DNA from: Spirochaetota bacterium | GTDB lineage: Bacteria > Spirochaetota > UBA4802 > UBA5550 | Direction: 5' to 3' | DNA length: 64,000 nt | NCBI GenBank assembly: GCA_003246895.1 | Contig: QKCL01000067.1 | Coordinates: forward strand, 17,995-81,994 | Shown here: in pieces, positions 15,989-40,240 of the stretch | Layout: every line of letters begins with the position of its first letter | Position numbering within the stretch: position 1 is the stretch's first letter | Notes under the pieces: model-generated | The model's database searches: none | What the model saw: only the letters and a program-made list of their open reading frames with translations | Told to the model about the DNA's origin: nothing | Position numbers and translations under genes: made by a program

Positions 15989-17302
<1,314 letters not shown>

Positions 17303-19443: not shown

Positions 19444-19452
19444 GAAGATCTT

Positions 19453-21749: not shown

Positions 21750-21961
21750 AAATTAATGTACATATAATATAACAAAAAAAATGGGGGAGTAAAAGAAAAA
21801 AACAGGTCCGGGGAAGGTTTGATACGGTGAATTCTCTTTAATAGTGTGTTGGCGGGCAGTGAACTCTCCTGCATGAGCCCTATGGAAAAGTGGTTGATAA
21901 ACCTGCCTTTTCGGTCAAAGATGACCAGATTCGGTACAGTATAAAAACAGGTGAGGTTGTG

Positions 21962-23263
21962 ATGTTTAACAGTGAAATTGAGACAATGTCTGAAAGTAAG
22001 ATGAAGGAGCTTCAGCTTGAAAGACTTAAATGGTCCATCAGGCATGCCTATGATAACGTTCCTCATTACAGGAAGACTTTTGATGACGCAGGATTTAATC
22101 CTGACCAGTTTAAAACACTGGATGATATGAGAAGAGTGCCATTTCTTACAAAACAGGATATGAGGGATGCCTATCCCTACGGACTTTTCGCGGTTCCTCT
22201 CAGCAAGGTTGTTAGAGTACATGCTTCATCCGGTACCACTGGTAACGCAACCGTTGTGGGATATACAAAGAATGATGTTGAGGTTTTTTCCGAGGTTGTT
22301 GCAAGAAGTCTTGCCTGCTACGGAGTAACTGAGAATGATATTGTCCAGAACGCATACGGATACGGTCTTTTTACAGGGGGCCTGGGGGCCCATTACGGAG
22401 CTGAAAAAATAGGGGCAATAACAGTGCCCATTTCCGGCGGAAATACTCCAAGACAGATTATGATCATGAAAGATTTCGGGTCAACAGTTCTCTGTTCGAC
22501 TCCTTCATATGCCCTTAATATAGCTGATTATATAGAGTCTAACATGCCGGATTTTGATATGAGTTCTCTTAAACTGAAAATCGCTGTCATGGGTGCCGAG
22601 CCCTGGACTGAGGAGATGAGGCAGCAGATTGAGAAACGCCTGAATGTTGATGCTTTTGATATTTACGGACTCAGCGAGGTTATAGGGCCGGGGGTATCTG
22701 CGGAATGTACAGAGAAGAGCGGCCTTCATGTTTTTGAAGATCATTTCTATGTTGAGATTATAGATCCGGACACGGGAGAGATTCTTCCTGAAGGTTCCGA
22801 GGGGGAGATAGTATATACTTCCCTGACCAAGGAGGCTTTCCCCACGATCAGATACAGATCCAAGGATATTACAAGGCTTTATCATGACAGCTGCAGGTGC
22901 GGAAGAACACTTGTTAAAATGGATAAGGTCACAGGAAGAACAGATGATATGCTTATTATCAGGGGAGTAAATGTATTCCCGTCACAGATAGAGTCTGTGC
23001 TTATGCAGGAGGAGGGCACAGAGCCGCATTATCAGATCATAGTTGACCGCAAGGGAACCATGGATGAGATAGAGGTAATGGTGGAGGTCAATGAAAAGGT
23101 CTTCTCCGATGAGATAAAGGTCCTTGATTCACTTGCAAAGAGTCTTGCCCACAGAGTCAAGAGTACTCTCGGCATTACTGCGAAAATCAAGCTTGTTGAG
23201 CCCAAGTCTATACCTAGAAGTGAAGGCAAGGCTGTGCGTGTTATAGATAACAGAAAAAAATAG
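21962..23263 (+). CDS. paaK: Phenylacetate-CoA ligase family
   Basis: [43 protein letters not shown]. Confidence 0.9.
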
Positions 23264-23273
23264 GGGGGATAAT

Positions 23274-23711
23274 ATGAACGTTACTCAGATTTCAGCATTT
23301 GTTGAAAATAAACCGGGCCATATTGCCGGTGTCCTGAAGGTGCTGGCAGACAACAATATAAATATCATTACACTTACTGTTGCCGATACTGCAGACTTCG
23401 GGGTGCTCAGGATGATTCTTGATAAACCTGAGCTTGCAAAGGCAAAACTCAGTGAAAACAGTATTACATGCAGTGTTACAGATGTTCTTGCCATCGAAAT
23501 AGATGATACTCCGGGAGCTCTTTTAAAAGCACTTGAGGCATTTTCAAATCTTGAGCTTAACATTGAGTACATGTATGCCTTCACACAGAAGATTCATGAT
23601 AATGCCGTAATGATTTTCAGGTTTGAGGATATTGAGAAAGCAAAAAAAGCCCTTGTTGAAAAGGGCTGTAGAATAATAAGAAATATTGACATAATTGGAG
23701 AAGATAAATGA
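23274..23711 (+). CDS. Tandem ACT-domain protein
   Basis: QISAFVENKPG, DFGVLRMI, DTPGAL, NIEYMYAF. Confidence 0.88.
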   Translation: MNVTQISAFVENKPGHIAGVLKVLADNNINIITLTVADTADFGVLRMILDKPELAKAKLSENSITCSVTDVLAIEIDDTPGALLKALEAFSNLELNIEYMYAFTQKIHDNAVMIFRFEDIEKAKKALVEKGCRIIRNIDIIGEDK

Positions 23712-25264
23712 CCAGTAAAGTTATGTTGGGAAACGAAGCTATCGCACGTGGAGCATGGGAAGCGGGATGCCACGTTGCTGCGGGATATCCCGGAACTCCC
23801 AGTACTGAGATACTGGAAACCATTGCTGCTGATTACAGAGACATAAAGGCTCAGTGGTCCCCCAATGAGAAGGTGGCTCTCGAGGTTGCAGCAGGAGCAT
23901 CAATTGCCGGAGCAAGGTCTCTTTCCACAATGAAACATGTGGGGCTCAATGTTGCGGCGGACCCTCTTTTTACTTTTTCATACACAGGGGTAAACGGCGG
24001 ATTTGTAATAATAAATGCCGATGATCCGGGAGCATGGAGTTCCCAGAATGAGCAGGATAACCGTCACTATGCAAGGGCGGCAAAACTTCCCATGCTTGAG
24101 CCTTCATCTCCTGCTGAGGCCAGGGAATTCACAAAGAAGGCATTTGAAATTTCGGAGAAATTTGACAGGACCGTTATTGTAAGGATAACTACAAGGATCG
24201 CCCATTCTCAGGGGATTGTGGAGTTAGGCGACAGGGAAAATGTACCTGTTAAGGATTTCGTGAGAGATCCTAAAAAATATGTCATGATTCCGGCTCACGC
24301 AAGGCCGAAGCACAAAAAGATTGAAGAACAGCAGGCTGAGATAATGGATTATTCCTGTACTTCAGGTCTGAACAGAATCGAGTGGGGCGGTAAGAAACGC
24401 GGTATAATAACAAACGGTATCGCCTATCAGTATGTTAAAGAGGTTTGTCCTGATGATTCTGTTTTAAAGATCGGAATGGTCTGGCCTCTGCCCGAGAAAC
24501 TCATCAATGAGTTTGCGGCAGGTGTTGAGGAGCTTTACGTGGTTGAGGAACTTGACCCGTTTATTGAAGATTATGTCAAGGCAATGGGATACGAGGTCAA
24601 GGGAAAGGATATTATTCCTTTATGTGGAGAACTCACTCCTGAAATTGTTGATGAGGCACTGAATGGAAACAAAACTGTGAAGGCTGTTCCTGAGTATGCA
24701 GGAGATCTTCCAGGCCGGCCTCCTGGACTCTGCAAGGGATGCCCCCATGCCTTTGTTTTCGATGTAATAAAGAAACTGGATCTTAATGTTAACGGCGATA
24801 TCGGATGTTATACTCTTGGAGTCCTTCCTCCCTATTCGGCAATGCACACACAGGGATGTATGGGAGCCAGTATCGGTATGCATCTTGGAATGGAGAAGGC
24901 TCATGGGCCTGAGATGGCAGCTAAATCTGTAGCTGTTATCGGCGACTCAACATTTATCCATTCGGGTATCACTCCTCTGATCGACCTTGTCTACAATAAA
25001 GGAACCGGTACAGTTATTATTATGGATAACAGAACCACTGCCATGACCGGTCATCAGGAGAACCCCGCCACCGGCAAGACCCTTATGGGAGAGGAAACAT
25101 TCGAACTCGACCTTGAGGCAATCTGTAAAGCTGTGGGTGTAAAGAGAGTGAGGGTAATTGATCCCAAGGATAAGGATGAGCTTGAGAAAGTCCTTTCAGA
25201 GGAGATTTCCACAAGAGAACCTTCTGTTATAATAACAAAGAGAAAGTGTATACTTAAGAGGTGA
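23708..25264 (+). CDS. iorA: Indolepyruvate ferredoxin oxidoreductase alpha subunit
   Basis: GYPGTPSTE, NEKVA, MKHVGLNVA, LCKGCPH, GDIGCY, GDSTF. Confidence 0.92.
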   Translation: MTSKVMLGNEAIARGAWEAGCHVAAGYPGTPSTEILETIAADYRDIKAQWSPNEKVALEVAAGASIAGARSLSTMKHVGLNVAADPLFTFSYTGVNGGFVIINADDPGAWSSQNEQDNRHYARAAKLPMLEPSSPAEAREFTKKAFEISEKFDRTVIVRITTRIAHSQGIVELGDRENVPVKDFVRDPKKYVMIPAHARPKHKKIEEQQAEIMDYSCTSGLNRIEWGGKKRGIITNGIAYQYVKEVCPDDSVLKIGMVWPLPEKLINEFAAGVEELYVVEELDPFIEDYVKAMGYEVKGKDIIPLCGELTPEIVDEALNGNKTVKAVPEYAGDLPGRPPGLCKGCPHAFVFDVIKKLDLNVNGDIGCYTLGVLPPYSAMHTQGCMGASIGMHLGMEKAHGPEMAAKSVAVIGDSTFIHSGITPLIDLVYNKGTGTVIIMDNRTTAMTGHQENPATGKTLMGEETFELDLEAICKAVGVKRVRVIDPKDKDELEKVLSEEISTREPSVIITKRKCILKR

Positions 25265-25272
25265 GTAGATCG

Positions 25273-25842
25273 ATGAAGAGTGTAATATTTAACGGTGTTG
25301 GAGGCCAGGGAGTTATACTGGCAAGCAAGGTCCTCATGGAAGTTGCAATGAAAAACGGATATGATGTCAAGGAATCCGAAGTCCACGGTATGGCTCAGCG
25401 CGGCGGAAGTGTGGAGTGTAATGTCCGTTTCGGAGAGAAGGTCTATTCTCCTCTTATTCAGAAAGGGAAAGCGGATTTTATTGTGAGCTTTGAACTTTTA
25501 GAGTCAATGAGAAAGACAGATTATCTGAACGATGATACAGTTCTCCTTGTCAACAGGGAACAGATAAATCCTGCACCTGTTGAGATAGGTGTTATGGAGT
25601 ATCCCTCTGATATTGAAGAGTGGCTGGAGAAGAACGTAAAAAATGTCAAGATACTTGATACAAAGGATGCTCTCATCGGAGCCGGTACAAAGAAGGCGCT
25701 GAATATAGTAATGCTGGGAAGTCTTTCAAAGTATCTGGAATTCGAACTTTCAGACTGGGAAGATGCCATTAAAGGTCTTGTAAAGGAACAGTTTGTTGAG
25801 CAGAACATTAAAGCTTTTAATCTTGGAAGAGCTCTTGTGTAG
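25273..25842 (+). CDS. iorB: Indolepyruvate ferredoxin oxidoreductase beta subunit
   Basis: GVGGQG, EVHGMAQRGGSV, NIVMLG, NIKAFNLG. Confidence 0.92.
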   Translation: MKSVIFNGVGGQGVILASKVLMEVAMKNGYDVKESEVHGMAQRGGSVECNVRFGEKVYSPLIQKGKADFIVSFELLESMRKTDYLNDDTVLLVNREQINPAPVEIGVMEYPSDIEEWLEKNVKNVKILDTKDALIGAGTKKALNIVMLGSLSKYLEFELSDWEDAIKGLVKEQFVEQNIKAFNLGRALV

Positions 25843-26045: not shown

Positions 26046-26402
26046 GTCAAATCGACACATCATTGCATCAAATCGACGCGCCATTTGGTTAAATTGATGC
26101 TCCGCTGGGTCAAATCGACATTCCCGAGAGTTAAAACGACACTCAAGAGTATTAAATCGATACTCCAGACCATAAAACTTACTCTCCAGAGTATAAAATC
26201 GATGCTCACGACCTTAAAGTTTATGCTCCGGACCATGAATCTTATACTCTCGACCATGAATCTTATGCTCTCGACCATGAAATTTATTCAACGGACCATG
26301 AAGTTTATGCTCCAGACCATGAAATTTATACAACGGACCATGAATCTGATGCTCCCGACCATGAAATTTATACAAAGGACCATAAAGTTTATGCTTACGC
26401 TC
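26046..26402. repeat. Tandem array of 17 degenerate 21-bp units
   Basis: Units such as ATGAATCTTATGCTCTCGACC and ATGAAATTTATTCAACGGACC in exact 21-bp register from 26046 to 26402. Confidence 0.9.
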
Positions 26403-26419
26403 AATGTTTCAACATAGTT

Positions 26420-27919
26420 TTGGGTGTGTCAGGGGTGTGTCAGAGAAACTGTGTAAATATTCAGTGGGGGACGATAATAATATTACTGGAGGTTTTCCGG
26501 AAGACCTGGGCCGGAGCAGCACTAGCTGGAGCAGCCGGGTCAGTAGCAGGTGGCATAAAGATGGGCGGAATGTATCTGTCAATGAAGAACCGTATAGGAA
26601 GATTCGCAACCGGCATACAGAATGATTTTAATGATTTTACAGATGATATGGGCAGGGCAGGAAGTGCAGTGGCATCAGCAGCCAGCACTGCATGGAAAGG
26701 AATAACAAGTGCAGAAAGTGCAGCGTGGACAGGTGTAAAGAATTTCGGACAGAGTGTTAAGAACAAGGTTGCATACGGAGTTTATGGTACAGATACAGAT
26801 TCTGATGTATTAAATGCAAAATTCCAGGAAATGTGGAACTCAGATGCAGTAAGTAAGGTAGTAACGGGTTATGGTGCATCTTCAATGAGTTATGGTAAAT
26901 ATCTTGAAACTAATCTGAAAATTACTACAGACAGTAATGGTAATACGGTACTTGCAACTAAAAAAGCAACAGCCTTTGGAGATAGAGAAAATGAAGATGA
27001 TACTTCGGGCATGAGTGAACAACAATTTGAAGAAGCTGATTCAAAACAATCATTTTTAGGAAAGTTCTTTCACAATAAAACAATAATGTGGAAAAATGCA
27101 TGGAGTACAACAGTCCGAGCATCAGAAGAGGGGCTTTCTGGATATGAAAATATAACTGAACGAGAGTTATTCGGTAATGATAGTAGTGGAGAGGCAGCTT
27201 TTGATAAAGTTGTGGGTAGTCTTAAAGACAGTCTTTTGCAAGAAGCCAAGGGTGACTACATGGATAAGGTTCTCAATTCATGGGAAAGTACAGGTGGTTT
27301 TTTAAATGGTGACAATTTGTTGCAAGCAGCAGCATTAGGAGGAGCATATCTTTACTTTAGTGAAGGTGCAGGTTATACTCATACATTCAAAAATGGAATA
27401 ATTGCAGGTGGAGAATTTGGCTGGGACAACAGTGACCCTAAAAATAACTGTTCAGGAAAGGTAATTATTGGCGGTGAAAATAGCGATGTAACAGCTAAGG
27501 CTACATTTGAAGCTGGAAAGGAAATGGATAATGATTCTGGAAAAATTAATAACCGATTTGATAGTAATGTTGAAATTCAGACAAAAGATTTTGGTGGTAA
27601 ATATGAATTTGAAATTGATACAAGTAAAAATAGCACTACAATAACCAACTCATTGTCTGGCAAGTACCAGATTAATAAAAATATCAGTATCTATGGAGGG
27701 GGAAGTTATTCCAGCCAGTCTGATGGTTCAAATTCATGGAATATAAATTCGGGATGGCAATATAGCGGTCAATACAGAGTCAATGCTGACATTGGTTTTG
27801 GTAAAAATTACAATAATAGCAATGAATATTCTTTGAAGTGGAGTTTTAGTACAAAAATAAATATTTTCGGAGATAAAAAGACAGTAGATAAATTAAAAAA
27901 GATAGGAAAAAATAATTAA
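26420..27919 (+). CDS. Headless polymorphic-toxin-like protein (Gly/Ala-rich helices, then a beta-rich C-terminal domain)
   Basis: First ~25 codons read through the IS-like end; then AGAALAGAAGSVAGG and AGSAVASAASTAW; AT-rich C-terminus of alternating beta strands; followed by a MORN gene. Confidence 0.55.
   Translation: MGVSGVCQRNCVNIQWGTIIILLEVFRKTWAGAALAGAAGSVAGGIKMGGMYLSMKNRIGRFATGIQNDFNDFTDDMGRAGSAVASAASTAWKGITSAESAAWTGVKNFGQSVKNKVAYGVYGTDTDSDVLNAKFQEMWNSDAVSKVVTGYGASSMSYGKYLETNLKITTDSNGNTVLATKKATAFGDRENEDDTSGMSEQQFEEADSKQSFLGKFFHNKTIMWKNAWSTTVRASEEGLSGYENITERELFGNDSSGEAAFDKVVGSLKDSLLQEAKGDYMDKVLNSWESTGGFLNGDNLLQAAALGGAYLYFSEGAGYTHTFKNGIIAGGEFGWDNSDPKNNCSGKVIIGGENSDVTAKATFEAGKEMDNDSGKINNRFDSNVEIQTKDFGGKYEFEIDTSKNSTTITNSLSGKYQINKNISIYGGGSYSSQSDGSNSWNINSGWQYSGQYRVNADIGFGKNYNNSNEYSLKWSFSTKINIFGDKKTVDKLKKIGKNN
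26433..26460 (+). mobile_element. Isolated IS256-family-like terminal inverted repeat, no transposase
   Basis: GGGTGTGTCAGAGAAACTGTGTAAAT fits the GGGnnTGTCAG..TGTGT pattern I recall for IS256-family ends; its first 11 bp are tandemly duplicated at 26422-26432. Confidence 0.55.
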
Positions 27920-27960
27920 TAAGGTTTAGCGTAATTTAAATATTATAAGGATTAAAGAAA

Positions 27961-28692
27961 ATGAAAATTGCAGTGAATATTCTATTTAGCGTAATGTTTT
28001 TAGTTTCAAGTATTAGCTATGCGAAAGAAAACTATGTTCAGGATATGAAATACAGAGGTGGCAAGTATACCGGAGAAGTGAAGAATGGCCTGCCGCAGGG
28101 GAGGGGGACATTTATAGATAATGATGGCAAATATGAAGGTGAATTTTATAAAGGCAATTTTCAGGGGAAGGGTAAGATTTTTTTTAAAAATGGAAGCACT
28201 TATGAAGGTGAGTTTAAGAATGATAAAAAAGATGGAAAAGGTGTATTTATATGGATAGAGAATGGTAAATTTTCAATGAAATATATTGGTCAATATAAAA
28301 ATGAATATAGGCATGGCAAAGGTATGTATATAATGGCCAATGGTGTAAAATATGAAGGTGAGTTTAAGAATGGGAAAGAACATGGGAAAGGTATCTATAT
28401 ATGGGAAAATGGGGAGAAATATGAAGGCGAGTATAAGAATGGAAAGAGACATGGTAAAGGAATTTATTATTGGCCATCAGGGAAAAAATATGTTGGTGAA
28501 TATTTTAATGGAGCAAGGCATGGGAATGGTACAGAAATATTGCCTGATGGGAAAAAATTTGTTGGACACTTTGAAAATGGCAGAGCTACCGGTTATGGAA
28601 CCATGTATGATAAAAATGGTAAAATACTTGCCCAGGGTTATTGGAGAAATTATAAATATATAGGGAAAGAAAAACCGAAAGATTTAGAGTAA
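27961..28692 (+). CDS. Exported MORN-repeat protein (candidate immunity protein)
   Basis: Signal peptide; about 7-8 repeats of YEGEFKNGK.HGKG.Y.W.NG. Confidence 0.88.
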   Translation: MKIAVNILFSVMFLVSSISYAKENYVQDMKYRGGKYTGEVKNGLPQGRGTFIDNDGKYEGEFYKGNFQGKGKIFFKNGSTYEGEFKNDKKDGKGVFIWIENGKFSMKYIGQYKNEYRHGKGMYIMANGVKYEGEFKNGKEHGKGIYIWENGEKYEGEYKNGKRHGKGIYYWPSGKKYVGEYFNGARHGNGTEILPDGKKFVGHFENGRATGYGTMYDKNGKILAQGYWRNYKYIGKEKPKDLE

Positions 28693-28737
28693 TTCTATTT
28701 TTTAGGAATTAATTGAAATAAATAAAGGAAACCCTCA

Positions 28738-29160
28738 ATGATTAAGAAAAAAGTAGATATAAAAACAGAAACAAACACAGAGGCACCAACCATACCAGAA
28801 GTGTACAGCAACGCAGTGCTAACAAACATGACACCATACGAGTTTGAAATAACCCTTGGACTTGGAAGCAGCAACTACGAGGGTGTTAAACCTGTGGTTA
28901 ATGTGAGAATGAGCCCTCAGTTTGCCAAAGGCCGACCCATCACTTCCTGTGATGTGGTCGGCATCAACCTCATCGCTTTCTCAGGATGAGATGATGCAAA
29001 GCCGTTACAGGATGTAACAATTGGTTTTGCCTGAGAACGTGAGTTCAGCAACCTGCTTCAACAGAACGTAAAGATGTTTGAAGAGAGGTTCCGGTATATG
29101 AGGAGTAGATGCTTGTTTTACGGAACAAGTTCTTTGAAAACAGTTCAGGATTACACCAAG
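28738..29160 (+). pseudogene. DUF3467-like gene interrupted by a 111-nt insertion
   Basis: PEVYSNA..TPYEFEITL..VNVRMSPQFAK (to 28929) resumes in frame at 29041 as EFSNLLQQNVKMFEERF; the insert carries two in-frame TGA codons. Confidence 0.7.
28930..29040. mobile_element. 111-nt structured insertion (MITE/REP-like, or RNA element)
   Basis: Almost fully paired; see findings. Confidence 0.6.
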
Positions 29161-29251
29161 CCGATTTAACACGAGGTTGAATCGGATGTTGCCGAGGACA
29201 AGCATGGATGCGTCCGCAGGCAGAAATAATATTTTTATGAAACAGTAAGGC

Positions 29252-29321
29252 AAGCCGACCCAGGGCGTCTGACTGGTCGGCTTTTTTGTGCAGCTTTTTG
29301 GGTCGTTGCCAAAAAGCTGCA
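29252..29321 (+). terminator. Terminator-like hairpin with U-tract, then a perfect 13-bp hairpin
   Basis: AAGCCGAC..GTCGGCTTTTTT; TGCAGCTTTTTGG-N7-CCAAAAAGCTGCA. Confidence 0.7.
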
Positions 29322-29423
29322 GAACGAATATAGAAATATTCAGAATTGATATAATTGAATGAAAATCAGAATTTGTCTTAAATAGTTCCTGATAAAAAAG
29401 ATTAAATTAAAATTTAAAAAGTT

Positions 29424-29662
29424 ACATGCAACATCGCGTGAGTGATGGAGCCGATATGCCGAAGGCATACAAGGCGAGAGCGCGACCCGCCGGGAAACAA
29501 ACCAGTTTGAGAGAAACAAGAGAATGAAGGTACTCATTCCAGGTGCGCAGACATTGTGCGCTTAAACAATTGGGAAAGGGACACGCCCAACCTTTACTCA
29601 GGTCTGCAGGTCGTCGATTCTATTTTGCCACTTCCTGTGGCAGAATCGACATCAACCTCATC
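29424..29662. ncRNA. Candidate structured non-coding element of unknown class
   Basis: GC-rich non-coding block with at least six consecutive stems, right after AT-rich DNA. Confidence 0.4.
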
Positions 29663-29666
29663 CTGA

Positions 29667-30347
29667 TATAGCTATGTAGATTTAGAGTCCCAGTGGCTAA
29701 ACAGAAACATAGAAGAGGTCTTTGAAAAGAACGGATTCTTTGAGGAACATACAGAGGTAGAGTTCGACCGGCTTGGCAGGAAGTTCGGAGAGTATTGCCA
29801 GTACTGGATGGCCGGGGAAGCCCTGAAAGCCGGAGCCTTCTACAGTAAGCCCATTTTCCCCAATGGACCGAATATGTTTCAGACAGCGGCCATAGCAGCG
29901 AGTTTATCTGGGCAGGCATGGCTTGCAGAGGCAATAAGTGTAGCAACAAGCGCAATACAGGTAGCAGACGGGACTATGTCGTGGAAGCAGGCAGCATTTC
30001 AGGTTGGAGTAAGTGTGGCAACATCTGCAATAGGTGCAGGAGCAGCCGGCTTTGAGAGCAAGGCCATGCAGAACGCATCAAGTATGATGTTTAGAAAGAT
30101 GCTTGGCAGTGACGAGAAGATGAGCTGGGCCACAGTGGCAAATACAGACCCCATAGGTTAAATGGCCAGTAAGTTTTTCAATGGATTTGTAACACCTGCG
30201 AAGATATCACCGGAAATATATTTTACACTATCGACAGGAACAAGAGATTTCTCACTTTCCTTCGACATGACAGGGGAACCATACTATGCGCCCGCCTTCA
30301 ACATTGAAGCCGACAGGCATGGATGCCTTATGCAAAATTATTCATAA
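29667..30347 (+). pseudogene. Internal fragment of a large Ala/Gly-rich toxin-like protein
   Basis: Frame open from 29667 without a start; TAA at 30159-30161; same frame continues MASKFFNGFVT. Confidence 0.5.
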
Positions 30348-30835
30348 CATCCTGTTATGCTTTTTGCAGGCAGTCATCGTGTCTGCACTGTCGCCGATTT
30401 CAGGATGAAAAAGAGGCGGCTGGCACGGCCGAATCATTTATATTATCCACCTGAAAATTTAATTACTGAATTCCTGACCTGTAATTTTCTGTAAATAGGG
30501 ATATCCTTTGGTTCTGATAAAGGTTATTGTGCCCCTTTTCAGGGCTGGGGGTTCTCCTTAACTGTGTCATTAACTTTATGAAATTCCTACGAAACAAGGT
30601 AAATATCATATATTTACATATGAAATTTGGGGGTACTAGAAGAACTGATAGACTGTGCAGCGTCTGACTCTGAGCTTAAAGATCAAAAAATGCAAAGATA
30701 AAAAATCTCAGCAAACATTAAGTGCAAAAAAAAGTTGATTTTTTGCCCAAATTGCTTTTAATATATGAATGCAAAAGTTATGTGAAATTACATGCCCGAC
30801 TGAGTCCATGTATCCATCACATCTAAGAGGTAATC

Positions 30836-32440
30836 ATGCTTAAAAGAATTAAATTTTTATCTGTTTTAATATTCCTTATAATTTCATTTGCGAATTGCTC
30901 AAAGCAACAGAACGTCAATTTTATATTTATTACCGGCAGTAAAGTAAAACTGATGAGTGAACCATCGTCAAAATCAAAAAGACTGCAATATGTTAAATGT
31001 AATGAAATAATTAGCCATATTGAAGAAGTTAAGGTTGATAATGACCGCTGGTTTAAAGTTAAAATAGGAAAGTTAACAGGTTATATTGAAAACAGCAGAG
31101 AAGATAAGGAGGAGATTTCTGTATTCTATAAAAACGTATCAAAAGAATGCGGTGTCGCTCTGACCGATCCCGTAGAAGTTTACAGTATTCTTAATGCAAC
31201 GACTGCCCCATTATTTAAAATAAATAGAGGTAATTATTTTTATATTGAAGCCCAGGAAGGTGATGGAGATAGCTGGTTATATATAAAAACACAAAGCGGA
31301 AAAACAGGCTTCATCCTTGGTTCTCAAATTCTGAGAGGTGATTTAAAAGCTGTTCAGACCATAAGTAAAAGTAAACTTGAAAAAGTCGATGCATGGGTTC
31401 AGGTATCTGTTGATAAGCCCAAATTCTTAAATATTCCCGGCCCTTCGGGTAGGTTGGTAACAAAGAAAGATCCGGCCAAATGTACTCACAGGCTGGAACT
31501 GTATCCGAAGAAAAATGGATTTGCTCCTGTATCCGAAAAAATTTCAATTAATGGTATCAACTATTTTCATGTAGAAAGGATGTTTAGTTCGGGTTGTGGT
31601 TGTGAAGGTGGGATAAATGCATGGATATCTGAAAAAGATGTACTGTTTATTCCTGACTTTTTTGCATATTCCCTGAAACAGAATCAAACACATCTTGATA
31701 AGAATTTATTGGAACTCCTGAATAGAGAAATAGCAGGTAATTTAAACGCTGCTACAGTGAATATAAAGAAAGTGAATCTGGGTGAAATAATGCCCGAGGC
31801 AGAATTTTTTAAGGTTCGTTGTGAAAAGGGTGATCAGACTGCATTTGGAGATTCTGATACAGTTGCTTATAATTATTTTCTGGTCGCTAAAAGGAATAAT
31901 AAATATTTAGTTCTCCATTCAATGAAAGTATCTGATATTGATAAAGATGACTGTATGAATTCTTCTCAAACCCGTAATTACTGGAATGAAGAGTTGTCTT
32001 ATCTGATAATAAGAGACATTGATCAGGATAATAAGTTTGAATTGATTCAGCTTGACTCAGGGGAGGCTGATTTAAGTTTTATTGTTTATCGCTTTGTTGA
32101 TGGCAAATATAAAAAAATAATTCAGTTTGGAGTTGGTGGTTTAAGATGTGTTGCGTTTGATGATATTCGTAAAATGGATTTCAGACACATAGTGTTCTTT
32201 AAAAACTGTTACGGACCAAAGGGGAAGAAAACAGAATGGATGCCTGTAGTCAAACTTGATCGTCCTCCATTTGACAAAAAATATGAAAATAATGAAATTC
32301 GTGTCCTGGAATTCAAAGACGGTGAATATGTGGAAATAGATGCTGATGGTTCTGGTCTTGATTTCAAGAAGTCATACAATGAATCCCTGCCATGTACGGA
32401 TTGTCCGAATACTGAAAATTTTGCATGTAAAGCTAAATGA
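30836..32440 (+). CDS. Lipoprotein with SH3b-like domains
   Basis: Lipobox FANC; DRWFKVKIGKLTGYI and SWLYIKTQSGKTGFI repeats; AGAGG RBS. Confidence 0.65.
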   Translation: MLKRIKFLSVLIFLIISFANCSKQQNVNFIFITGSKVKLMSEPSSKSKRLQYVKCNEIISHIEEVKVDNDRWFKVKIGKLTGYIENSREDKEEISVFYKNVSKECGVALTDPVEVYSILNATTAPLFKINRGNYFYIEAQEGDGDSWLYIKTQSGKTGFILGSQILRGDLKAVQTISKSKLEKVDAWVQVSVDKPKFLNIPGPSGRLVTKKDPAKCTHRLELYPKKNGFAPVSEKISINGINYFHVERMFSSGCGCEGGINAWISEKDVLFIPDFFAYSLKQNQTHLDKNLLELLNREIAGNLNAATVNIKKVNLGEIMPEAEFFKVRCEKGDQTAFGDSDTVAYNYFLVAKRNNKYLVLHSMKVSDIDKDDCMNSSQTRNYWNEELSYLIIRDIDQDNKFELIQLDSGEADLSFIVYRFVDGKYKKIIQFGVGGLRCVAFDDIRKMDFRHIVFFKNCYGPKGKKTEWMPVVKLDRPPFDKKYENNEIRVLEFKDGEYVEIDADGSGLDFKKSYNESLPCTDCPNTENFACKAK

Positions 32441-32791
32441 TTCTTGAAGTTATAATGATATCGTTTAGCTTGCGGAGTTTTCTCTGTATCTCAACAGAAC
32501 ATTTTAATTACTGAATTCCGGTGACTGAATATTCTGCAATAACTGTATTGCTTTATCAGTAGATTTTACCATGAAACTAAGACGAAACAATAGAAAAAAA
32601 ATTCTTAAATCCATTAGTGTTAATGCAGTTTTTTATCCTGTCCACCTGTGGCAGTTCTTTGTTTTTTAATCGGGACAGGATACTGTCATTGCATAATCTA
32701 TATTTCTTAAACCTCCTTCAAAAATAACTTGGTTTTTTTATCTCATATGAAAATTATGACTCCTGTTGTAGAATAAACCGGATGGTGATAT

Positions 32792-33286
32792 ATGGAGTTT
32801 TCAATTAATTTCACAATAGCTGCTGTGGTTATCTTTGTTGGTACCATGGTCGTATTTTCCTATATTTTCAAGACAACCGATCTTGAAAATATAGATCTGC
32901 TGCCTGGAGAGGAAATACTTTTTGAGGAAAAAGGTGTGAAGGTTGAACATGGCGGAGTAATAAAGGGGGCAGTGTTTTTAAACTGCCTTGTAAGAGTGAC
33001 AAACATGAGGCTTATCATTGCACAAAAAGGAATCTTCAGAGAATCTTATTTCATAAGACATGTCATCGATTATTCTGTTCCTGAAAATTCTGCCGATAAA
33101 AGCAAGAAAAATTATTTTTCAGCTGTTGTAGACAGGGAAAGGATACGCCTTGAGGATGAACCCGGAAAGAAGGGCAGAACTTTTGTGATCGTTGAAATAC
33201 CATATTCCTCGGGAATGAGCGGTCAGTATATAAGATTTATCACTTCACGGGTAGATGAATTTAAAAATCAGTTTATATACGGGTGA
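32792..33286 (+). CDS. Membrane-anchored hypothetical protein (PH/GRAM-like)
   Basis: N-terminal TM helix; LLPGEEILFEE, VRVTNMRLIIAQ. Confidence 0.6.
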   Translation: MEFSINFTIAAVVIFVGTMVVFSYIFKTTDLENIDLLPGEEILFEEKGVKVEHGGVIKGAVFLNCLVRVTNMRLIIAQKGIFRESYFIRHVIDYSVPENSADKSKKNYFSAVVDRERIRLEDEPGKKGRTFVIVEIPYSSGMSGQYIRFITSRVDEFKNQFIYG

Positions 33287-33308
33287 GGCATAACCCCACC
33301 CGTATATA
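33274..33308. terminator. 12-bp hairpin between convergent genes
   Basis: TATATACGGGTG-N11-CACCCGTATATA. Confidence 0.65.
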
Positions 33309-33310
33309 CG

Positions 33311-34894
33311 TTATACTCCTTCAGAAGTTTCAGGTTTGATCCTTTTTCCTCCTGTTTTTTTCATGAATTCGATCTTGTTCAGTGCGTCGACGAATGAATG
33401 TACTCCTGCAACTGAAATATCTATACTCATTCCGCTGCCGAATACCTTAAGAACGCTCCCTTCGTATTCCTCTTCAACGATGGATGATACTTCACAAAGT
33501 GCATCGGATCCGCCTGTAATTGCGACAAGATTGAATGCCTTGAGACGTGCCTTTGTTCCGGTAATTTTTTTAACTGCATTGATTCCTGCATCAACGCCGC
33601 CGTTTCCATGGGCTACTTCAAATACCTCTTCATCATTCTGGTCGTGGTCCTTCAGTGTAACCATGGACATGGGGGGGGAGAACATGCCGGTTGAAATCTG
33701 TATGTTCTCAACACTGTATCTCCAGTCCTGCTCCTTCTTGTGAAGAACTTCGCCTGTTATGGCAAGAAGGTCTTCGTCAAAGATCTCCTTCTTTCTGTCC
33801 GCGATTGATTTGAACTTTTCAAAGAAAGCGTCAATTTTTGACTCTTCAATTTCATGGCCCAGTTCCTTGAGTCTTGTAAGTACCGCGTGACGACCGGAGT
33901 GCTTTCCAAGAACAAGTTTTGATTTCTGAATTCCAACATCTTCAGGCTTCATTATTTCATATGTCTGGGCGTTCTTCAGTACTCCGTCCTGGTGGATTCC
34001 CGATTCATGGGCGAATGCGTTTTCTCCTACAATAGCCTTGTTTGGCTGAACAGATACACCGGTAATATTTGTCAAAAGCTTGCTTGCAGGCACAATCTGT
34101 CTTGTGTCGATATCTGTATAGACATTGAAGATGTCGCTTCTTGTCTTTATTGCCATTGCGAATTCTTCGATTGCGGTGTTCCCGGCTCTTTCCCCGATAC
34201 CGTTTATTGTACACTCAACCTGTCTTGCTCCTGCCTGTACTGCGGCAATTGCATTTGCACCTGCAAGTCCAAGGTCATTGTGGCAGTGTACAGAGATTAT
34301 TGCTTTATCTATGTTTTTTACATTGCCCTTTATATATCTGATAAGGTCGTAGAATTCATTTGGAACCGTGTATCCCACTGTGTCAGGAATGTTCAGTGTG
34401 GTTGCACCTGCTTCAATGACTGCTGAAAGCATTTCGCAGAGGTATTTCCAGTCGCTTCGTGTGGCATCCATGGGGGAGAATTCAACATTCTTTGTGAAGC
34501 TTTTTGCCTGTGTAACCGCTTTAACTGCTTCTTTCAGTACTTCATCTCTTGTCTTTTTAAGCTGATATTCAATATGAATGTCTGAACTTGAAATGAATGT
34601 ATGTATTCTTGGATTCACGGCCTTTTCAAGAGCGCGTCCGGCTGCTTCGATATCCTTTGTGTTTGCCCTTGCAAGCCCGGCAACCTGTGCCTTTTTTATT
34701 TTCTGTGCAATGAGTTCTGTTGCTTCAAAATCTCCGTCTGAAATTACCGGAAATCCGGCTTCTATTATATCTACTCCAAGTCTTTCAAGCTGCTCGGCAA
34801 TAAGGATCTTTTCCTCCATGTTCATTGAAAAACCGGGGGCCTGTTCTCCATCCCTTAGGGTTGTGTCGAATATAAATATTTTTTCCTTGTTCAT
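33311..34894 (-). CDS. leuA: 2-isopropylmalate synthase
   Basis: DTTLRDGEQ, PDTVGY, HCHNDLG, HESGIHQDG, GKHSG; C-terminal regulatory domain GNGGVDA. Confidence 0.95.
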   Translation of the reverse strand: MNKEKIFIFDTTLRDGEQAPGFSMNMEEKILIAEQLERLGVDIIEAGFPVISDGDFEATELIAQKIKKAQVAGLARANTKDIEAAGRALEKAVNPRIHTFISSSDIHIEYQLKKTRDEVLKEAVKAVTQAKSFTKNVEFSPMDATRSDWKYLCEMLSAVIEAGATTLNIPDTVGYTVPNEFYDLIRYIKGNVKNIDKAIISVHCHNDLGLAGANAIAAVQAGARQVECTINGIGERAGNTAIEEFAMAIKTRSDIFNVYTDIDTRQIVPASKLLTNITGVSVQPNKAIVGENAFAHESGIHQDGVLKNAQTYEIMKPEDVGIQKSKLVLGKHSGRHAVLTRLKELGHEIEESKIDAFFEKFKSIADRKKEIFDEDLLAITGEVLHKKEQDWRYSVENIQISTGMFSPPMSMVTLKDHDQNDEEVFEVAHGNGGVDAGINAVKKITGTKARLKAFNLVAITGGSDALCEVSSIVEEEYEGSVLKVFGSGMSIDISVAGVHSFVDALNKIEFMKKTGGKRIKPETSEGV

Positions 34895-35005
34895 AATGAT
34901 GCTCCTGTTATTATTGAATGTTCGGTTTTATGGTAAATAGATTACGAGACTAAACGGGAAAATCATCCCTGCACCTCCCAGTGGGTTTACCCACATCCAG
35001 AATGT

Positions 35006-35043
35006 AAAAAAAAAGCCGTCACTTTTTTTCGTGACGGCTTTTT
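35006..35043 (-). terminator. Attenuator terminator in the leuA leader
   Basis: Minus strand AAAAGCCGTCAC-GAAAAAAA-GTGACGGCTTTTTTTTT. Confidence 0.85.
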
Positions 35044-35067
35044 CTATTATCAGTTTAAAAAAAGGCA

Positions 35068-35151
35068 TCACGAAACCGGACCAGCTTTGAGCAGGTTGAG
35101 AAAGAGGAGACCGAGTAGTAAGTTTGCTATGTCAAATCTTTCTGTTTTCAT
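35068..35151 (-). CDS. leuL: Leu-rich leader peptide (27 aa) of the leuA attenuator
   Basis: MKTERFDIANLLLGLLFLNLLKAGPVS; 8 Leu in 11 codons; AAGGA RBS; stop overlaps the antiterminator arm. Confidence 0.8.
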   Translation of the reverse strand: MKTERFDIANLLLGLLFLNLLKAGPVS

Positions 35152-35198
35152 AATTTCCTTTTGAGATTTCTTATTAAATGATTTTATCTCTGTCAATA

Positions 35199-36893
35199 TT
35201 AAATTTTAAATTTTTTAAATTTTCTTGCAAAATGTTTTTTGAAAATTTTCATTCCCAGCTCGTTCTGGTGTTCAATTATCTCGTTGAGAATCCCTTCTGT
35301 TGTGAGTGGGTTGATTGTAATTGCCCTGAGTATGACGCAATTCTGGTAAAAGTACTTGGGGATGTCAAACATTGTCCTTGAAACAAAGCTTTCATCCTCT
35401 TCCCTGATTGACTTATGCAGCTCTATGTTGAGATCGTTGAGGACAATATTCATTTTTTCCAGCTCCTCTGCGTCCTTTTCGACTTCTTTGCCGCATTCAC
35501 CATTTGCCCATGCTGAAGAAACTCTATCCCTTAAAACTTTGATTTTTTCATGAACTTCCTTTGGAATAAAACGGTAGTTGAAAATAAAAAGTTCAGGTTC
35601 GTTCATGGCTTCAAAATTATCATGTTCAACTATGATTTTTTTCAGGGAAGATGTAAGCTCAAAGGCATGATCGAAAATGAGCTTGAAACCGTTTCTGCCT
35701 ATTATCTTTATTGTAGCCCATGCCTTGAGTGATGAAAAAGGTCTGGATCCTTCAACTGAAAACCTTCCGATATCAAATGAATCTTTTCGGATGATATAAT
35801 TTGAGGTATGCATGAGATGTTTGGCATCGGAACCGTCTCTGAAGTATATCATTCCAAGGGACGGGGGGGCATATAGAAGTTTGTGAGCGTCTATTGTAAC
35901 GGAGTCGGATTTTTCAATGCCCTTGAACATGTCTCTGTACTTGTCGACCAGCAGCAGCGATCCTCCCCATGCTGCATCAACATGGAAATGTGCGCCATAT
36001 TTGTCTGCAATGCGTCCTATTTCTTCCAGGTCATCTATGTTTCCTGTTTCTGTCGTTCCCGCAATGCCGACAATTGCAATAATTTTGGTTCTTGGACCTC
36101 CGGCCATGTTGGCTTTTTCAATTTCATCGCATCTTGCTTCGAGAATCTTTGTGTCCATCTTGTTGTTTGAGTCAATTGGAATTTTGATTACATTATTGCC
36201 GCCTATTCCGAGTATCCTTCCAACCTTATCCAGAGAATAATGGCCTCTTTTGGAAACAAAAATAACGGACCGGTCGTAGCCGTAGTGCTTGTATGCCTCA
36301 TGTATCCCCTCAAATCTTACACCTCCGAAGTCCTTTGTTTCCGGAAACGCCTTGTTTCGTGCAACGAGGAGGGCTGTGAGGTTTGCCATAGTGCCGTCAA
36401 CTACCATATTTCCTAGGGCTATATCTTTGCTTTGAATATTTTTTTTGTAAAACTTGTTCGGCAGCTGATATATGAGTCTGTGCATCCATGCTATAAATTC
36501 CCTTTCGAGGAAAGTTGACGCCTTTGCTGTTTCGATTTTTACCTGATTCTGATTGAGTGCAGCTATGATCATTTCAAGAAGGATAATGAAATAGGGGATT
36601 GCACTGGTCATGTGGCCGATATAATAGGGGTTGCCCACTTTTACAGAGTGTGCAATTACCTTTGTTTTTATCTCATACAGCACCTCTGTAAGTCTCTGGG
36701 GCTTTGACGGCATCTCAGTATTTGAAAATATCTTTTCAAGGTCTCCAAGCTGGATGGAGCTGTGAATACCGCCCTTTTCAGTAAAAAAACTGTGAAGAAG
36801 GTCCAGTAATTCATTTCCAAACTCATGAAACTTATCCGCCGAATTGGGCATTATGAAAAGTTTCTTGATATGTTCCATGTTTGTGGGGGTCAT
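35199..36893 (-). CDS. panP: Group II PLP-dependent decarboxylase, PanP-like aspartate 1-decarboxylase
   Basis: YIGHMTSAIPYF, NQNQVKIETAKA, GTTETGNID, HVDAAWGG, DAHK, GSRP. Confidence 0.78.
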   Translation of the reverse strand: MTPTNMEHIKKLFIMPNSADKFHEFGNELLDLLHSFFTEKGGIHSSIQLGDLEKIFSNTEMPSKPQRLTEVLYEIKTKVIAHSVKVGNPYYIGHMTSAIPYFIILLEMIIAALNQNQVKIETAKASTFLEREFIAWMHRLIYQLPNKFYKKNIQSKDIALGNMVVDGTMANLTALLVARNKAFPETKDFGGVRFEGIHEAYKHYGYDRSVIFVSKRGHYSLDKVGRILGIGGNNVIKIPIDSNNKMDTKILEARCDEIEKANMAGGPRTKIIAIVGIAGTTETGNIDDLEEIGRIADKYGAHFHVDAAWGGSLLLVDKYRDMFKGIEKSDSVTIDAHKLLYAPPSLGMIYFRDGSDAKHLMHTSNYIIRKDSFDIGRFSVEGSRPFSSLKAWATIKIIGRNGFKLIFDHAFELTSSLKKIIVEHDNFEAMNEPELFIFNYRFIPKEVHEKIKVLRDRVSSAWANGECGKEVEKDAEELEKMNIVLNDLNIELHKSIREEDESFVSRTMFDIPKYFYQNCVILRAITINPLTTEGILNEIIEHQNELGMKIFKKHFARKFKKFKI

Positions 36894-37104
36894 TCTTTTT
36901 CCCCTTCTATAAAATTTGATACCGGAAATATCTCTAAACCGGAAGTTAAAGTCAGATAATTGAATGGTTTCATTTTTTCAAGGTTTTTTTTCAAATACAG
37001 TCATTATAGTAATTTTAGAGCTCTCCGTAAAAAATACTAAATAATCAACGCTATCATGACGATAACATGATCAAGGCGTATAATACTCCAGTTAGGAAAC
37101 CCGA

Positions 37105-37419
37105 ATGAATTATATTGCAGATAAAGTAAAGATATGGAAGTTCCCCAGGGATATAAGCTTTGAAAGTGTTCCGGGATATCTCAATTCATTTGTGCCTAAG
37201 TCTGAATACGGGAAAGTTGTCTTCGATATGAAAGAGACCGAGACCTTTCATGCTTCATTTGTAGGTTTTCTGCTTCATGTGAAGAGTGTTTCTGAAAGGA
37301 ACGGCACTGCCTTCGATGTGCTGTTTTCGGAAAGGGCTGCCAGAACCATAAGAATGATGGGGCTGTTTTCACATTTCTGCATATCCCGTTCAGACGAACG
37401 TAACGAACTGTCAGCCTGA
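37105..37419 (+). CDS. STAS-domain protein
   Basis: VVFDMKETETFHASFVGFLL resembles the STAS DLSxVxFIDSxGL box. Confidence 0.6.
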   Translation: MNYIADKVKIWKFPRDISFESVPGYLNSFVPKSEYGKVVFDMKETETFHASFVGFLLHVKSVSERNGTAFDVLFSERAARTIRMMGLFSHFCISRSDERNELSA

Positions 37420-37444
37420 TTTTTTATTTAAAAATTAAAAATAA

Positions 37445-37473
37445 TTGACACAGCCGGGCTTTCGGGATAGTTT
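37445..37473 (+). promoter_or_regulatory. Sigma70 promoter
   Basis: TTGACA-N17-TAGTTT. Confidence 0.6.
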
Positions 37474-37508
37474 ACAAACTTCTAAAATTCTAACAGATAG
37501 GGTTTGCC

Positions 37509-37796
37509 ATGCTTTTTTCTGAATGCCAGATTGATACAGCAACAGAGGTGCTGAAATCGATTTCTCATCCAATAAGACTGAAAATACTCTGTTTTCTCCT
37601 TGAGGGAGAGAAAAATGTTGGTGAGATTGAACAAAAGTTCGGGTCAACCATTTCAAATATCTCACAGCATCTCACTGTATTAAGAAAAGCAGATATTATT
37701 TCCAGAAGAAAGGATGCCAATTTCATGTTCTACAGTCTTAAGGACAAGAATATTATAGCATTAATGGAAACCATGAAAAAACTCTTCTGCCAGTAG
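37509..37796 (+). CDS. ArsR/SmtB-family regulator
   Basis: LKSISHPIRLKIL, NISQHLTVLR, MFYSL. Confidence 0.9.
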   Translation: MLFSECQIDTATEVLKSISHPIRLKILCFLLEGEKNVGEIEQKFGSTISNISQHLTVLRKADIISRRKDANFMFYSLKDKNIIALMETMKKLFCQ

Positions 37797-39431
37797 ATGT
37801 TCAGCTTTAGAAGAACATCTTTTTTATTTCTTGCCTTAATCATATTCTACAGTAACAGCTATTCACAATCTTCAAAGATTATTTTGAAGGGGCTTCGTAT
37901 ATTCAGCCAGCCGGAGATTTCCAGAATTCTTGGATTAAACCTCAATGATACCGGCATCTCCAATGTCCGGATAACAATTTACAAAATAAAGAGTTTTTAT
38001 CTCAAAAACGGATATCCACTCATTGAGGTGTATAATCTTGCCAGCAGGGATGACAATATCCATCTGTTTATTGATGAAGGAAGGCTTGGGAGGATTGTTG
38101 TCACCGGGCTCAATTCATATTATGCCCTGAAGGTAAAACAGGTGCTCCGTTTCCCGGGCAATGTTTATAATCAGGATGTACTTGATAATAACAGTGAGAT
38201 GATTAAGGAGAATTTTCTAACAGCCGAGGTGTCCTATGAACTTGTCAAGGTCAAGGATTACAGCGGCAATTTTTTTCAGCTCGATGAACATCTCAAGAGT
38301 ATAGATATAATGAATTTTGAACTGGTGCGAATATTTGATGATTACCCTCCTGCCTATAATCTCTATATTCATGTAAAGAAACGCGATGGTTTTCTCAAGG
38401 GAAGAAATGAAGGGGGAGACAGTTCCTGGGGAATGGGACTCAGAATTGGGTTTCCTTCTGAATTAAAGCCCAGGGTATATTATAAAAAGAGAAATCTGCT
38501 GTTTCAGGAGGACCGGCTTGATGCAGAAATCTCAGCAGGGCTTGATGCAGGGCTTGACAGCCTGCTTGCTGTTCCCCCGGAGCTGAAGTTTAATCCGCCG
38601 GAATACACTTTTTCGCGCTTTACAGTTGATTACAGCATACCCCCTGGAATGGGTAAGCATTTTTCTCCGGTTTATAAATCTGATGTATACCATTCAAAAA
38701 GTTCCAGGGAGGATATCGGCCTTGAAACATACAGGTACTTAAAGGTGAATGAGATTCTGGCTCCGGGTGTTAATTTTTTGGGTAAATTTAATCTATATAC
38801 CGGTTTCGGTTATGAATTTATCGTTTTCCACGAAAATACCTATGAAGATTTTTCTGAGGAGTATGGCGCGGATGAGAAGATGAGTCATTATCCATATTTA
38901 GAGGCTCAGGTAAGTTTCGACCCGTTTTCCTGGTTTATAGGACTAAGAAAGTCCATGGATTTTTCCCTGAAATACCAGGAATTCTTTAAAAAAATAAAAT
39001 CCCGGGAATTTGAGGCAACGGGACTTGTGGAGAAGGAGTTTAAAAACCTCAGTATTCTATCCTTTAAATTCAGGGGAAATTTCATGTTCCTTGATGTGCC
39101 TTTCTATCATCAGAGTGATGTCAGCAGTGATTATTTTAAGGGTTTTACAGGTAAAGGGTTTTATTCCAGTAAACAGCTTTCATTATCTTCGGAATACAGG
39201 TTCTCCGTTTATCAGGATTATATTTACAGCGGGTTTTTTGTGGATTATACAGTATTTGAAGCCTATGGAGAAGAGATTTACGGCAACAAACGGGGAATTG
39301 TAGCAGGTACTCTGCTGAGAGTTCTTTTCTATGACCAGTTTGAATTCGGGCTTTACTGGGGTATGGACAGGCTCTTTCCTGACAGGGAATCCCAGTGGAA
39401 TCTGAAGATGAATCTTTCAAAGAAGTGGTGA
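37797..39431 (+). CDS. POTRA-like domain outer-membrane beta-barrel protein
   Basis: Signal peptide; FYLKNGYP and IDEGRLGRIVVTG (POTRA-like); aromatic beta strands; terminal W. Confidence 0.55.
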   Translation: MFSFRRTSFLFLALIIFYSNSYSQSSKIILKGLRIFSQPEISRILGLNLNDTGISNVRITIYKIKSFYLKNGYPLIEVYNLASRDDNIHLFIDEGRLGRIVVTGLNSYYALKVKQVLRFPGNVYNQDVLDNNSEMIKENFLTAEVSYELVKVKDYSGNFFQLDEHLKSIDIMNFELVRIFDDYPPAYNLYIHVKKRDGFLKGRNEGGDSSWGMGLRIGFPSELKPRVYYKKRNLLFQEDRLDAEISAGLDAGLDSLLAVPPELKFNPPEYTFSRFTVDYSIPPGMGKHFSPVYKSDVYHSKSSREDIGLETYRYLKVNEILAPGVNFLGKFNLYTGFGYEFIVFHENTYEDFSEEYGADEKMSHYPYLEAQVSFDPFSWFIGLRKSMDFSLKYQEFFKKIKSREFEATGLVEKEFKNLSILSFKFRGNFMFLDVPFYHQSDVSSDYFKGFTGKGFYSSKQLSLSSEYRFSVYQDYIYSGFFVDYTVFEAYGEEIYGNKRGIVAGTLLRVLFYDQFEFGLYWGMDRLFPDRESQWNLKMNLSKKW

Positions 39432-40238: not shown

Positions 40239-40240
40239 TT

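Follow-up and report, generated by a model that had tools for sequence, protein, structure and literature searches.

A degraded locus in an uncultured spirochaete that likely belongs to an undescribed polymorphic toxin/immunity family

Introduction

In orphan CdiA-CT/CdiI and Rhs-CT/RhsI modules, unrelated C-termini follow a conserved demarcation sequence and are each paired with their own small downstream gene, and startless, 5′-truncated copies carrying an AT-rich tip and an immunity gene lie downstream of, or apart from, the full gene. In Bacillus subtilis, the LXG toxin YwqJ is paired with the MORN_2-repeat antitoxin YwqK, and MORN_2 proteins of the YwqK type are annotated as antitoxins. 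Here we analyse a 64,000-nucleotide (nt) stretch of contig QKCL01000067.1 (the window) from an uncultured member of a Leptospirales-like clade of Spirochaetota, in which the interval between iorB and the conserved gene orf164 holds two toxin-like gene fragments, a MORN-repeat gene and a split DUF3467 gene. The locus shares the features of the orphan CdiA-CT and Rhs-CT modules listed above; unlike those systems, it has a new junction motif and a unit that is commonly closed by DUF3467. We conclude that the interval is likely a degraded locus of a polymorphic toxin/immunity family lying outside Pfam, NCBIfam and PADLOC: the kind of system is known, and this family is new and so far undescribed.

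Such a family would have been missed entirely by current domain libraries, in a host clade of poorly studied, uncultured spirochaetes that are common in digesters and sediments. The direct biological weight of the window copy is small because that copy is a wreck, and the wider interest lies in the grammar of junction motif, putative immunity gene and DUF3467, which offers a way to find more loci and, from gene context, a first hint about the DUF3467 family, to which no role has been assigned. Signatures of the described systems (FHA, VENN, YD/Rhs, PAAR and LXG) were found neither in the open reading frames (ORFs) of the window nor in the proteins of its relatives. FHA repeats and VENN (PT-VENN) gave no Pfam or NCBIfam match in the window ORFs or in the pre-toxin regions of the related loci L083, L088 and L089 (loci of relatives are numbered with the prefix L), and YD repeats and a DPxGL-type core end were likewise without a match. 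The pre-toxin regions of these three loci recall FHA/CdiA proteins, a likeness that is backed by no family match and is kept as no more than a resemblance.

A conserved junction precedes unrelated C-termini

Four coding features are central to the locus, and the first three form one unit:

26420–27919, + strand: orf499, a toxin-like gene of 499 codons truncated at its 5′ end (junction hidden Markov model (HMM), alignment to parents)
27961–28692, + strand: intact gene for a MORN-repeat protein with an N-terminal signal peptide (Pfam MORN, 5e-45)
28738–29100, + strand: DUF3467 gene, third gene of the unit, split into 28738–28929 and 29041 to about 29100 (Pfam, homology to relatives)
29673–30347, + strand: remnant of the next gene of the toxin family, a pseudogene (L102/L104 comparison by tblastn and blastp; codon usage)

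The frame of orf499 is open from 26156, after a stop at 26153, and contains no ATG, GTG or TTG before the TTG at 26420, bearing out an initial annotation that had called this ORF headless. Its 5′ part preserves pieces of a larger parent: 26501–26590 encodes residues that match parent residues 217–246, the residues KTWAGAAL...MKN map to a parent segment that the second fragment has lost (DNA 79% identical over 43 nt), and AW.GVK-type repeats extend from MKN to the junction. The junction motif lies at 26741–26836 within a shared module that reaches 27004, and is followed by a unique, beta-rich and AT-rich C-terminus (27005–27919). G+C content falls within orf499 from 0.478 to 0.345; its first 340 nt and the second fragment both stand at 48%, and the remainder of orf499 with the MORN gene at 34%, against a window mean of 41%. 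The earlier hand counts of 12/60 G+C at 27841–27900 and 31/60 at 16501–16560 are exact.

Searches of orf499 against Pfam, NCBIfam, PADLOC and PDB sequences gave no match, and a word-indexed protein search recovered only orf499 itself. Among 1.84 billion representative proteins its sole relative is P0002, which is 47% identical over 83 amino acids (aa; E = 4e-20). The family's proteins have in common a junction motif of the approximate form xS/TxxN(W/L)(I/V)xYxEFxTxDSxxVxxxK(Y/F)(L/Q)E. A two-sequence junction profile matched no protein, and a junction scan of genome contigs was likewise empty; the junction HMM matches nine ORFs from seven sources, namely orf499, P0002, L083 (two), L089 (two), L097, L102 and L096. 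Beyond the junction the C-termini of these ORFs do not align with each other.

The same unit recurs in relatives

The metagenome contig L083 encodes a family member with an M23-peptidase tip followed by a signal-peptide protein, and then P0002 followed by a signal-peptide MORN_2 protein; the P0002 frame, like that of orf499, is open upstream and has no start. Sequence upstream of P0002 led to L088 and L089, the latter consisting of a main gene, a leucine-rich-repeat (LRR) signal-peptide protein and an orphan that starts at the junction motif. With the rejoined DUF3467 as the query, a scan returned 24 loci, and further versions of this arrangement are among them: a 438-aa ORF, a 180-aa membrane protein and DUF3467 in L097; a 306-aa ORF, a 281-aa protein with five membrane segments, DUF3467 and an orphan starting at the junction in L096; and an ORF of at least 1799 aa, a 180-aa DUF6585 protein and DUF3467 in L105. 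A small membrane or signal-peptide protein stands directly before DUF3467 in eight loci (L095, L096, L097, L102, L103, L105, L107 and L109) and is of a multi-span type outside L109 (MORN_2), L107 (SH3_3) and L105 (DUF6585). Upstream of this small gene, all eight loci except L102, whose contig starts there, have a family member or the C-terminal part of one.

The unit in relatives is thus a junction with a variable C-terminus, a small signal-peptide or membrane protein and, often, DUF3467, and the window shows the matching order of orf499, MORN, DUF3467 and the next family member. The initial annotation's inference of toxin-tip and immunity modules finds support here: the two toxin-like fragments come from a single family of large modular proteins, in which unrelated C-termini follow a conserved junction, and an immunity-like gene comes after each C-terminus; homology and context would make the C-termini toxic and the downstream proteins protective. 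The MORN protein is a candidate periplasmic immunity protein, and signal-peptide MORN_2 proteins occupy its position in L083 and L109. A MORN-type protein directly downstream of a variable C-terminus, as in the window, L083 and L109, resembles YwqJ/YwqK; the differences are the signal peptides of the MORN proteins here and the lack of an LXG domain in the protein upstream. So far the family has been seen in uncultured Leptospirales-like Spirochaetota and in one MAG (metagenome-assembled genome) of Lentisphaera.

Fuller parents of the fragments, for which the initial annotation had proposed a search, exist in the related MAG loci L102 and L104 and in L105, whose ORF (L105:6–5405, at least 1799 codons and reaching the edge of the fetched locus) has no Pfam match and is the best candidate for a full-length family member. 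The region found in L102 corresponds to internal residues 886–983 of this ORF. A beta-rich segment of the L105 ORF with G/S alternation recalls the orf499 C-terminus. Among the genes of the relatives' loci there are also toxin–antitoxin pairs, IS3 elements and a nuclease gene: an IS3-family insertion sequence with an rve integrase core (L088:466–2278) interrupts the 3′ end of a family member, and an IS3-type element lies between DUF3467 and the next family member in L104.

This arrangement suggests how the family may diversify. Since the variable tip and the putative immunity gene sit between the conserved junction and DUF3467, ordinary homologous recombination with these two as homology arms could exchange tip and immunity gene together. 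In the window, orf499, the putative toxin gene, has lost its 5′ part and start, the next member downstream has become a pseudogene, and the MORN gene may have been kept intact because its product protects against kin that still make the toxin.

DUF3467 and the second toxin-like gene are broken

The initial annotation had described DUF3467 as split, and comparison with relatives defines the break precisely. Homology to six relatives ends at 28930/28931 and restarts at 29053, and an insertion of exactly 111 nt occupies 28930–29040. With the insertion removed, the rejoined protein scores 29.4 bits against DUF3467 (PF11950), above the gathering cut-off of 25, and the N-terminal part alone scores 13.2. 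The final approximately 10 codons of the window gene differ from those of its homologues: over 29041–29178 the frame, after EERF, leaves the homologues' ...FGEIKVFK end and continues for 26 codons, and the gene may have a second lesion in the form of a frameshift near 29092. DUF3467 occurs in multiple copies within single MAGs (five loci in one MAG), and its DNA is 80–83% identical between species.

The second fragment is 65% identical (E = 3e-54) to the ORF downstream of DUF3467 in L102 and L104, and a word-indexed search of the protein database gave no match to it. Positions 29673–30044 correspond to parent residues 43–166 at 65% identity and 30069–30182 to parent residues of about 290–326, so that approximately 123 residues (parent about 167–289) are deleted. 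A TAA at 30159–30161 takes the place of a lysine codon of the parent, and homology is gone after about 30190. Codon usage of the fragment is coding-like (+0.33). The deletion and the stop make this fragment a pseudogene and not a usable cassette; the locus looks decayed rather than maintained, contrary to the proposal of a silent cassette depot. The orf499 N-terminus has no direct similarity to the second fragment, and because the two map to different parts of the parent they are non-overlapping remnants of two members of one family.

Upstream of the second fragment, 29430–29600 was considered as a 5′ leader, with weak similarity to L102 and L104 that includes one compensated hairpin; counter to this, the homologous protein region in L105 is internal to the long ORF. 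The region at 29420–29600, previously described as a structured block, is only weakly structured (z = -2.0).

A structured repeat marks the breakpoints

Hairpin elements occur in the DUF3467 gene and around the second fragment:

28930–29040, + strand: 111-nt inserted element splitting DUF3467 (insertion limits; fold z = -5.3; covariance model, both strands)
29252–29288, + strand: terminator-like hairpin with a T-run (sequence reading)
29286–29324, + strand: second perfect hairpin (inverted repeat)
29613–29666, + strand: second copy of the hairpin module with its tail (covariance model, 49.9 bits over 29593–29725)
30332–30386, + strand: third hairpin module with a ACAUCCUGU loop and tail TCATCGTG, overlapping the end of the second fragment

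In the inserted element, a bulged hairpin whose loop reads CUUCCUG and the tail CATCAACCTCATC are followed by a second hairpin, with AGGAU in its loop, that is an inverted copy of the CUUCCUG-loop module; the element ends in TGAGAACGT. Neither a terminal inverted repeat nor a target duplication is seen at its limits (28930/29040). The 29613–29666 module is located exactly at the start of the homology between the second fragment and its parents. Its covariance match was tried over 29593–29725 as a full element, and we rejected that reading: the part past 29673 is probably spurious because relatives without the element conserve it as coding sequence. Three breakpoints are thus marked by elements, one inside DUF3467 and one at each edge of the second fragment.

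The GGA hairpins and twin hairpins reported earlier are real, the former as UCCU- or AGGA-loop hairpins at 28930, 29005, 29613 and 30332, and the latter as the pair at 29252–29288 and 29286–29324. A scan of all 64 kb for perfect stems found 28938, 29626, 30343 and one other site, 54736, and its pattern missed 29005. The claim that every gene of the interval is bounded by a repeat or palindrome does not hold throughout, because nothing more than a short, plain spacer separates orf499 from MORN and MORN from DUF3467.

In exact-pattern scans, one Leptospirales MAG (L082) and four metagenome contigs proved to contain the motif of hairpin plus tail. At about 110 nt, the full element runs from a first hairpin, which is optional, through a bulged hairpin (loop CACUUCCUGUG), the tail CAUCAACCUCAUC and the segment yUGAGAACGyG to a small hairpin plus a closing stem. 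In 14 matches, 95% of the main hairpin is paired, with compensatory changes in 10 of its 13 pairs; none of 500 shuffles reaches the observed pairing and slid controls pair at 24–36%, figures that are biased in the model's favour by an alignment fitted to the covariance model. Nine instances folded singly adopt the same architecture with different stems, and loop and 3′ tail stay fixed while stems differ, even between copies in one genome. The ACAUCCUGU-loop variant is present at 30332–30386, on the minus strand within the DUF3467 insertion, and in L061, L013 and L086.

Elsewhere the element appears in varied company. At L086:520–3260, a sulfatase-modifying-enzyme-like gene and a VapB/VapC pair, the latter resembling one beside DUF3467 in L096, are kept apart by three near-identical full copies, all of which have one more inverted module on their upstream side. 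In L013 the ACAUCCUGU hairpin is part of a larger element, two 187-nt copies of which (16094–16365 and 19253–19484) are 94% identical and lie inverted around a two-gene segment, the first copy with 27-bp terminal inverted repeats. At L082:2223–2507 an element and approximately 100 nt of AT-rich sequence are enclosed by two direct repeats of 38 bp in which the 3′ end of a cupin gene is duplicated, an arrangement that looks like an att-type or slippage duplication. Inverted repeats of the GTCATTGCGAG...CTCGCAATGAC type, a widespread short repeat, bracket the hairpin module at L061:1387–1565, and L085:5960–6068 is grouped with that site for repeats of this type.

Of the known repeat classes, REP, BIME, REPIN and MITE elements are similar in being short, structured, mostly intergenic repeats in gene orientation, and the inverted doublet, the split gene and the 27-bp terminal inverted repeats in L013 add to the likeness; unlike them, stems here vary between copies in one genome and the 111-nt insertion has neither target-site duplication nor terminal inverted repeats. 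Compared with REP/RAYT and IS200/IS605 systems, the window holds three to four divergent copies and no HUH (Y1) gene in its covered parts. Integron cores of the RYYYAAC...GTTRRRY form, as in CALIN arrays, are absent on reading the elements, and no integrase family occurs in the annotated parts of the window.

The Bacillaceae-1 motif (RF01690) offers a further parallel, with a bulged UCCU-loop hairpin, a similar second UCCUG segment and an alignment that spans its 67-nt model. All copies score 24.8–27.8 bits, under the 35-bit gathering threshold, and an Rfam scan of the whole window gave no match at gathering level. The elements have AGGA loops on their reverse strand, and the reverse strand of the Bacillaceae-1 motif has been noted as resembling CsrA sites (PMC4333381). 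Differences are the other phylum and the association of the motif here with repeats and insertions. The structured, covarying repeat that we define could help to account for the Bacillaceae-1 motif, so far unexplained.

The interval replaces a different block in relatives

The paaK-ACT-iorA-iorB operon (21890–25842) is conserved across all 80 MAG loci compared, with nothing 3′ of it conserved, and the window iorB is at most 78% identical to those loci. The right flank of the interval is also conserved:

32792–33286, + strand: orf164, conserved right flank (homologues 37–39% identical in L003 and L010)

In both L003 and L010, iorB is followed at a distance of about 8 kb by the orf164 homologue, whose orientation is unchanged. 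The comparison across relatives that the initial annotation had proposed shows that entirely different genes fill their intervening 7.7-kb block: one encodes a membrane protein, one is panE-like and two resemble acyl-CoA synthetase genes, and the window has none of them. Because L003 and L010 carry a different block there, the iorB–orf164 interval is a replaced segment, or island. The earlier statement that the window has no cognate enzyme is borne out in that annotated contigs, which cover approximately three-quarters of the window, record no transposase or recombinase family. No enrichment of promoter- or terminator-like sites was seen.

Alternative explanations

Several observations weigh against a toxin/immunity family. 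The orf499 C-terminus is an orphan with an unusable AlphaFold model (pLDDT 35); a known enzymatic domain occurs in just one tip, the Peptidase_M23 of L083, and other C-termini (orf499, P0002, L097) have no recognised toxin domain; and no secretion or delivery domain was identified in L105, the sole long parent, which has no Pfam match. The window fragment is linked to L105 transitively, via L102, and the full-length parent was sought in the loci of relatives, the window's own genome lying outside the collections searched. Nor is DUF3467 exclusive to toxin-like loci, because L093, L098–L101, L106 and L108 have DUF3467 with no toxin-like neighbour. PDB sequence searches with P0002 and the L089 ORF were empty. 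The family could instead comprise variable surface or adhesin-type proteins subject to phase or antigenic variation, with the downstream proteins as partners or chaperones and the window copies silent or decayed. The lack of a toxin domain in orf499, P0002, L097 and L105 fits this reading, as do the barrel-like alternation of the beta-rich orf499 C-terminus and L105 segment and the glycine-zipper and repeat regions, typical of envelope proteins, in the parents. We nevertheless consider it unlikely: one tip is an M23 peptidase, and the downstream genes (MORN, LRR, SH3, multi-span) belong to unrelated families that change along with the C-terminus, which argues for cognate immunity and not a common chaperone. 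A chimeric assembly within a metagenome bin is an extremely improbable source of the mosaic. Contigs of an independent assembly (Logan, SRR7216773) do break at the array and hairpins, including the 30332–30386 module, and leave 26219–26365 and 28992–29236 uncovered; yet four of them are 100% identical to the window over 16.6 kb–26218, 26366–28991, 29237–30383 and 30361–40536, overlap or abut in window order, break nowhere else, and run continuously from iorB into the array, from the array into orf499 and from the second fragment into the lipoprotein gene described below.

The hairpins raise a separate question, as the initial annotation had imagined a hairpin-recognising enzyme that shuffles the modules. 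In its fullest form this account makes them recombination sites, either integron-like attC or of REP/IS200 type with an HUH enzyme elsewhere, that assembled the island. Three to four modules within 1.5 kb, at breakpoints, would suit such sites, and so would the separation of accessory cassettes by three full copies in L086, covarying stems with fixed loop and tail as for a recognised hairpin, and an insertion that is a REPIN-like inverted doublet. Against this, the covariance model, run over the surroundings of 24 DUF3467/toxin loci of relatives (163 kb), finds zero elements, and other copies occupy gaps between core genes (L085, on the metH side). The elements show no attC core (GTTRRRY/RYYYAAC), annotations of the covered parts of the window list neither an integrase nor an HUH gene, and the orf499–MORN–DUF3467 unit is not bounded by hairpin elements; we hold this account to be very doubtful. 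Slightly less so, and still improbable, is that the modules, with their CUUCCUG/CAGGAUG loops, covarying stems and fixed 3′ tail, are functional elements (recognition sites of a single-strand DNA enzyme, or RNA silencers such as CsrA-type sponges or anti-Shine–Dalgarno elements) and, separately, that junction and DUF3467 form a dedicated exchange unit. A trans-acting enzyme would then cut and rejoin toxin loci, or RNA elements would silence the adjoining fragments, and the unit would be a three-gene cassette in which DUF3467 has an active role; a motif scan found no CsrA gene in the window. Since the elements are absent from the DUF3467/toxin loci of relatives and elsewhere lie between core genes, we regard them as secondary invaders of the locus, a structured repeat family separate from the system, and not as its own machinery. 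They would be a mobile or recombinogenic repeat whose insertions mark three breakpoints.

Other features of the interval

Three further features lie at the ends of the interval:

26046–26400, + strand: tandem array of about 17 × 21 bp (TRF, repeat finder, translation)
26422–26443, + strand: 11-bp doublet, GGGTGTGTCAG × 2 (TRF)
30836–32440, + strand: AT-rich lipoprotein gene with an SH3_3 domain (Pfam; direct repeats)

The 21-bp array is as first described and has super-periods of 42 and 84 bp. It translates into DHExYxx heptads in frame with orf499, with a gene-like codon score of +0.24, and its frame has no start codon and contains stops in the older 5′ units; no locus fetched has a comparable array. 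The doublet, at first taken for an IS256-like end, is a simple tandem with no insertion-sequence feature found. A reading of the doublet and 26450–26500 in another frame as an 'LNRD..SQYNTKD..GGF' pre-toxin motif was rejected, with no support from tblastn, blastn or MAFFT.

The lipoprotein gene (34% G+C) is flanked by direct repeats at 30458–30494 and 32503–32539, as had been noted, with 17 nt exact (from 30458 and 32503) and 37 nt at 76%; these may be the insertion footprint of a 2-kb AT-rich segment. Its product resembles (26% identity, E = 2e-6) the SH3 protein with a signal peptide encoded just before DUF3467 in L107, the common part being the signal peptide and SH3 domain, and the gene is possibly a leftover of immunity type. 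Beyond the interval, a perfect hairpin of 16 pairs at 33274–33308, between the convergent genes orf164 and leuA, is probably a terminator shared by the two.

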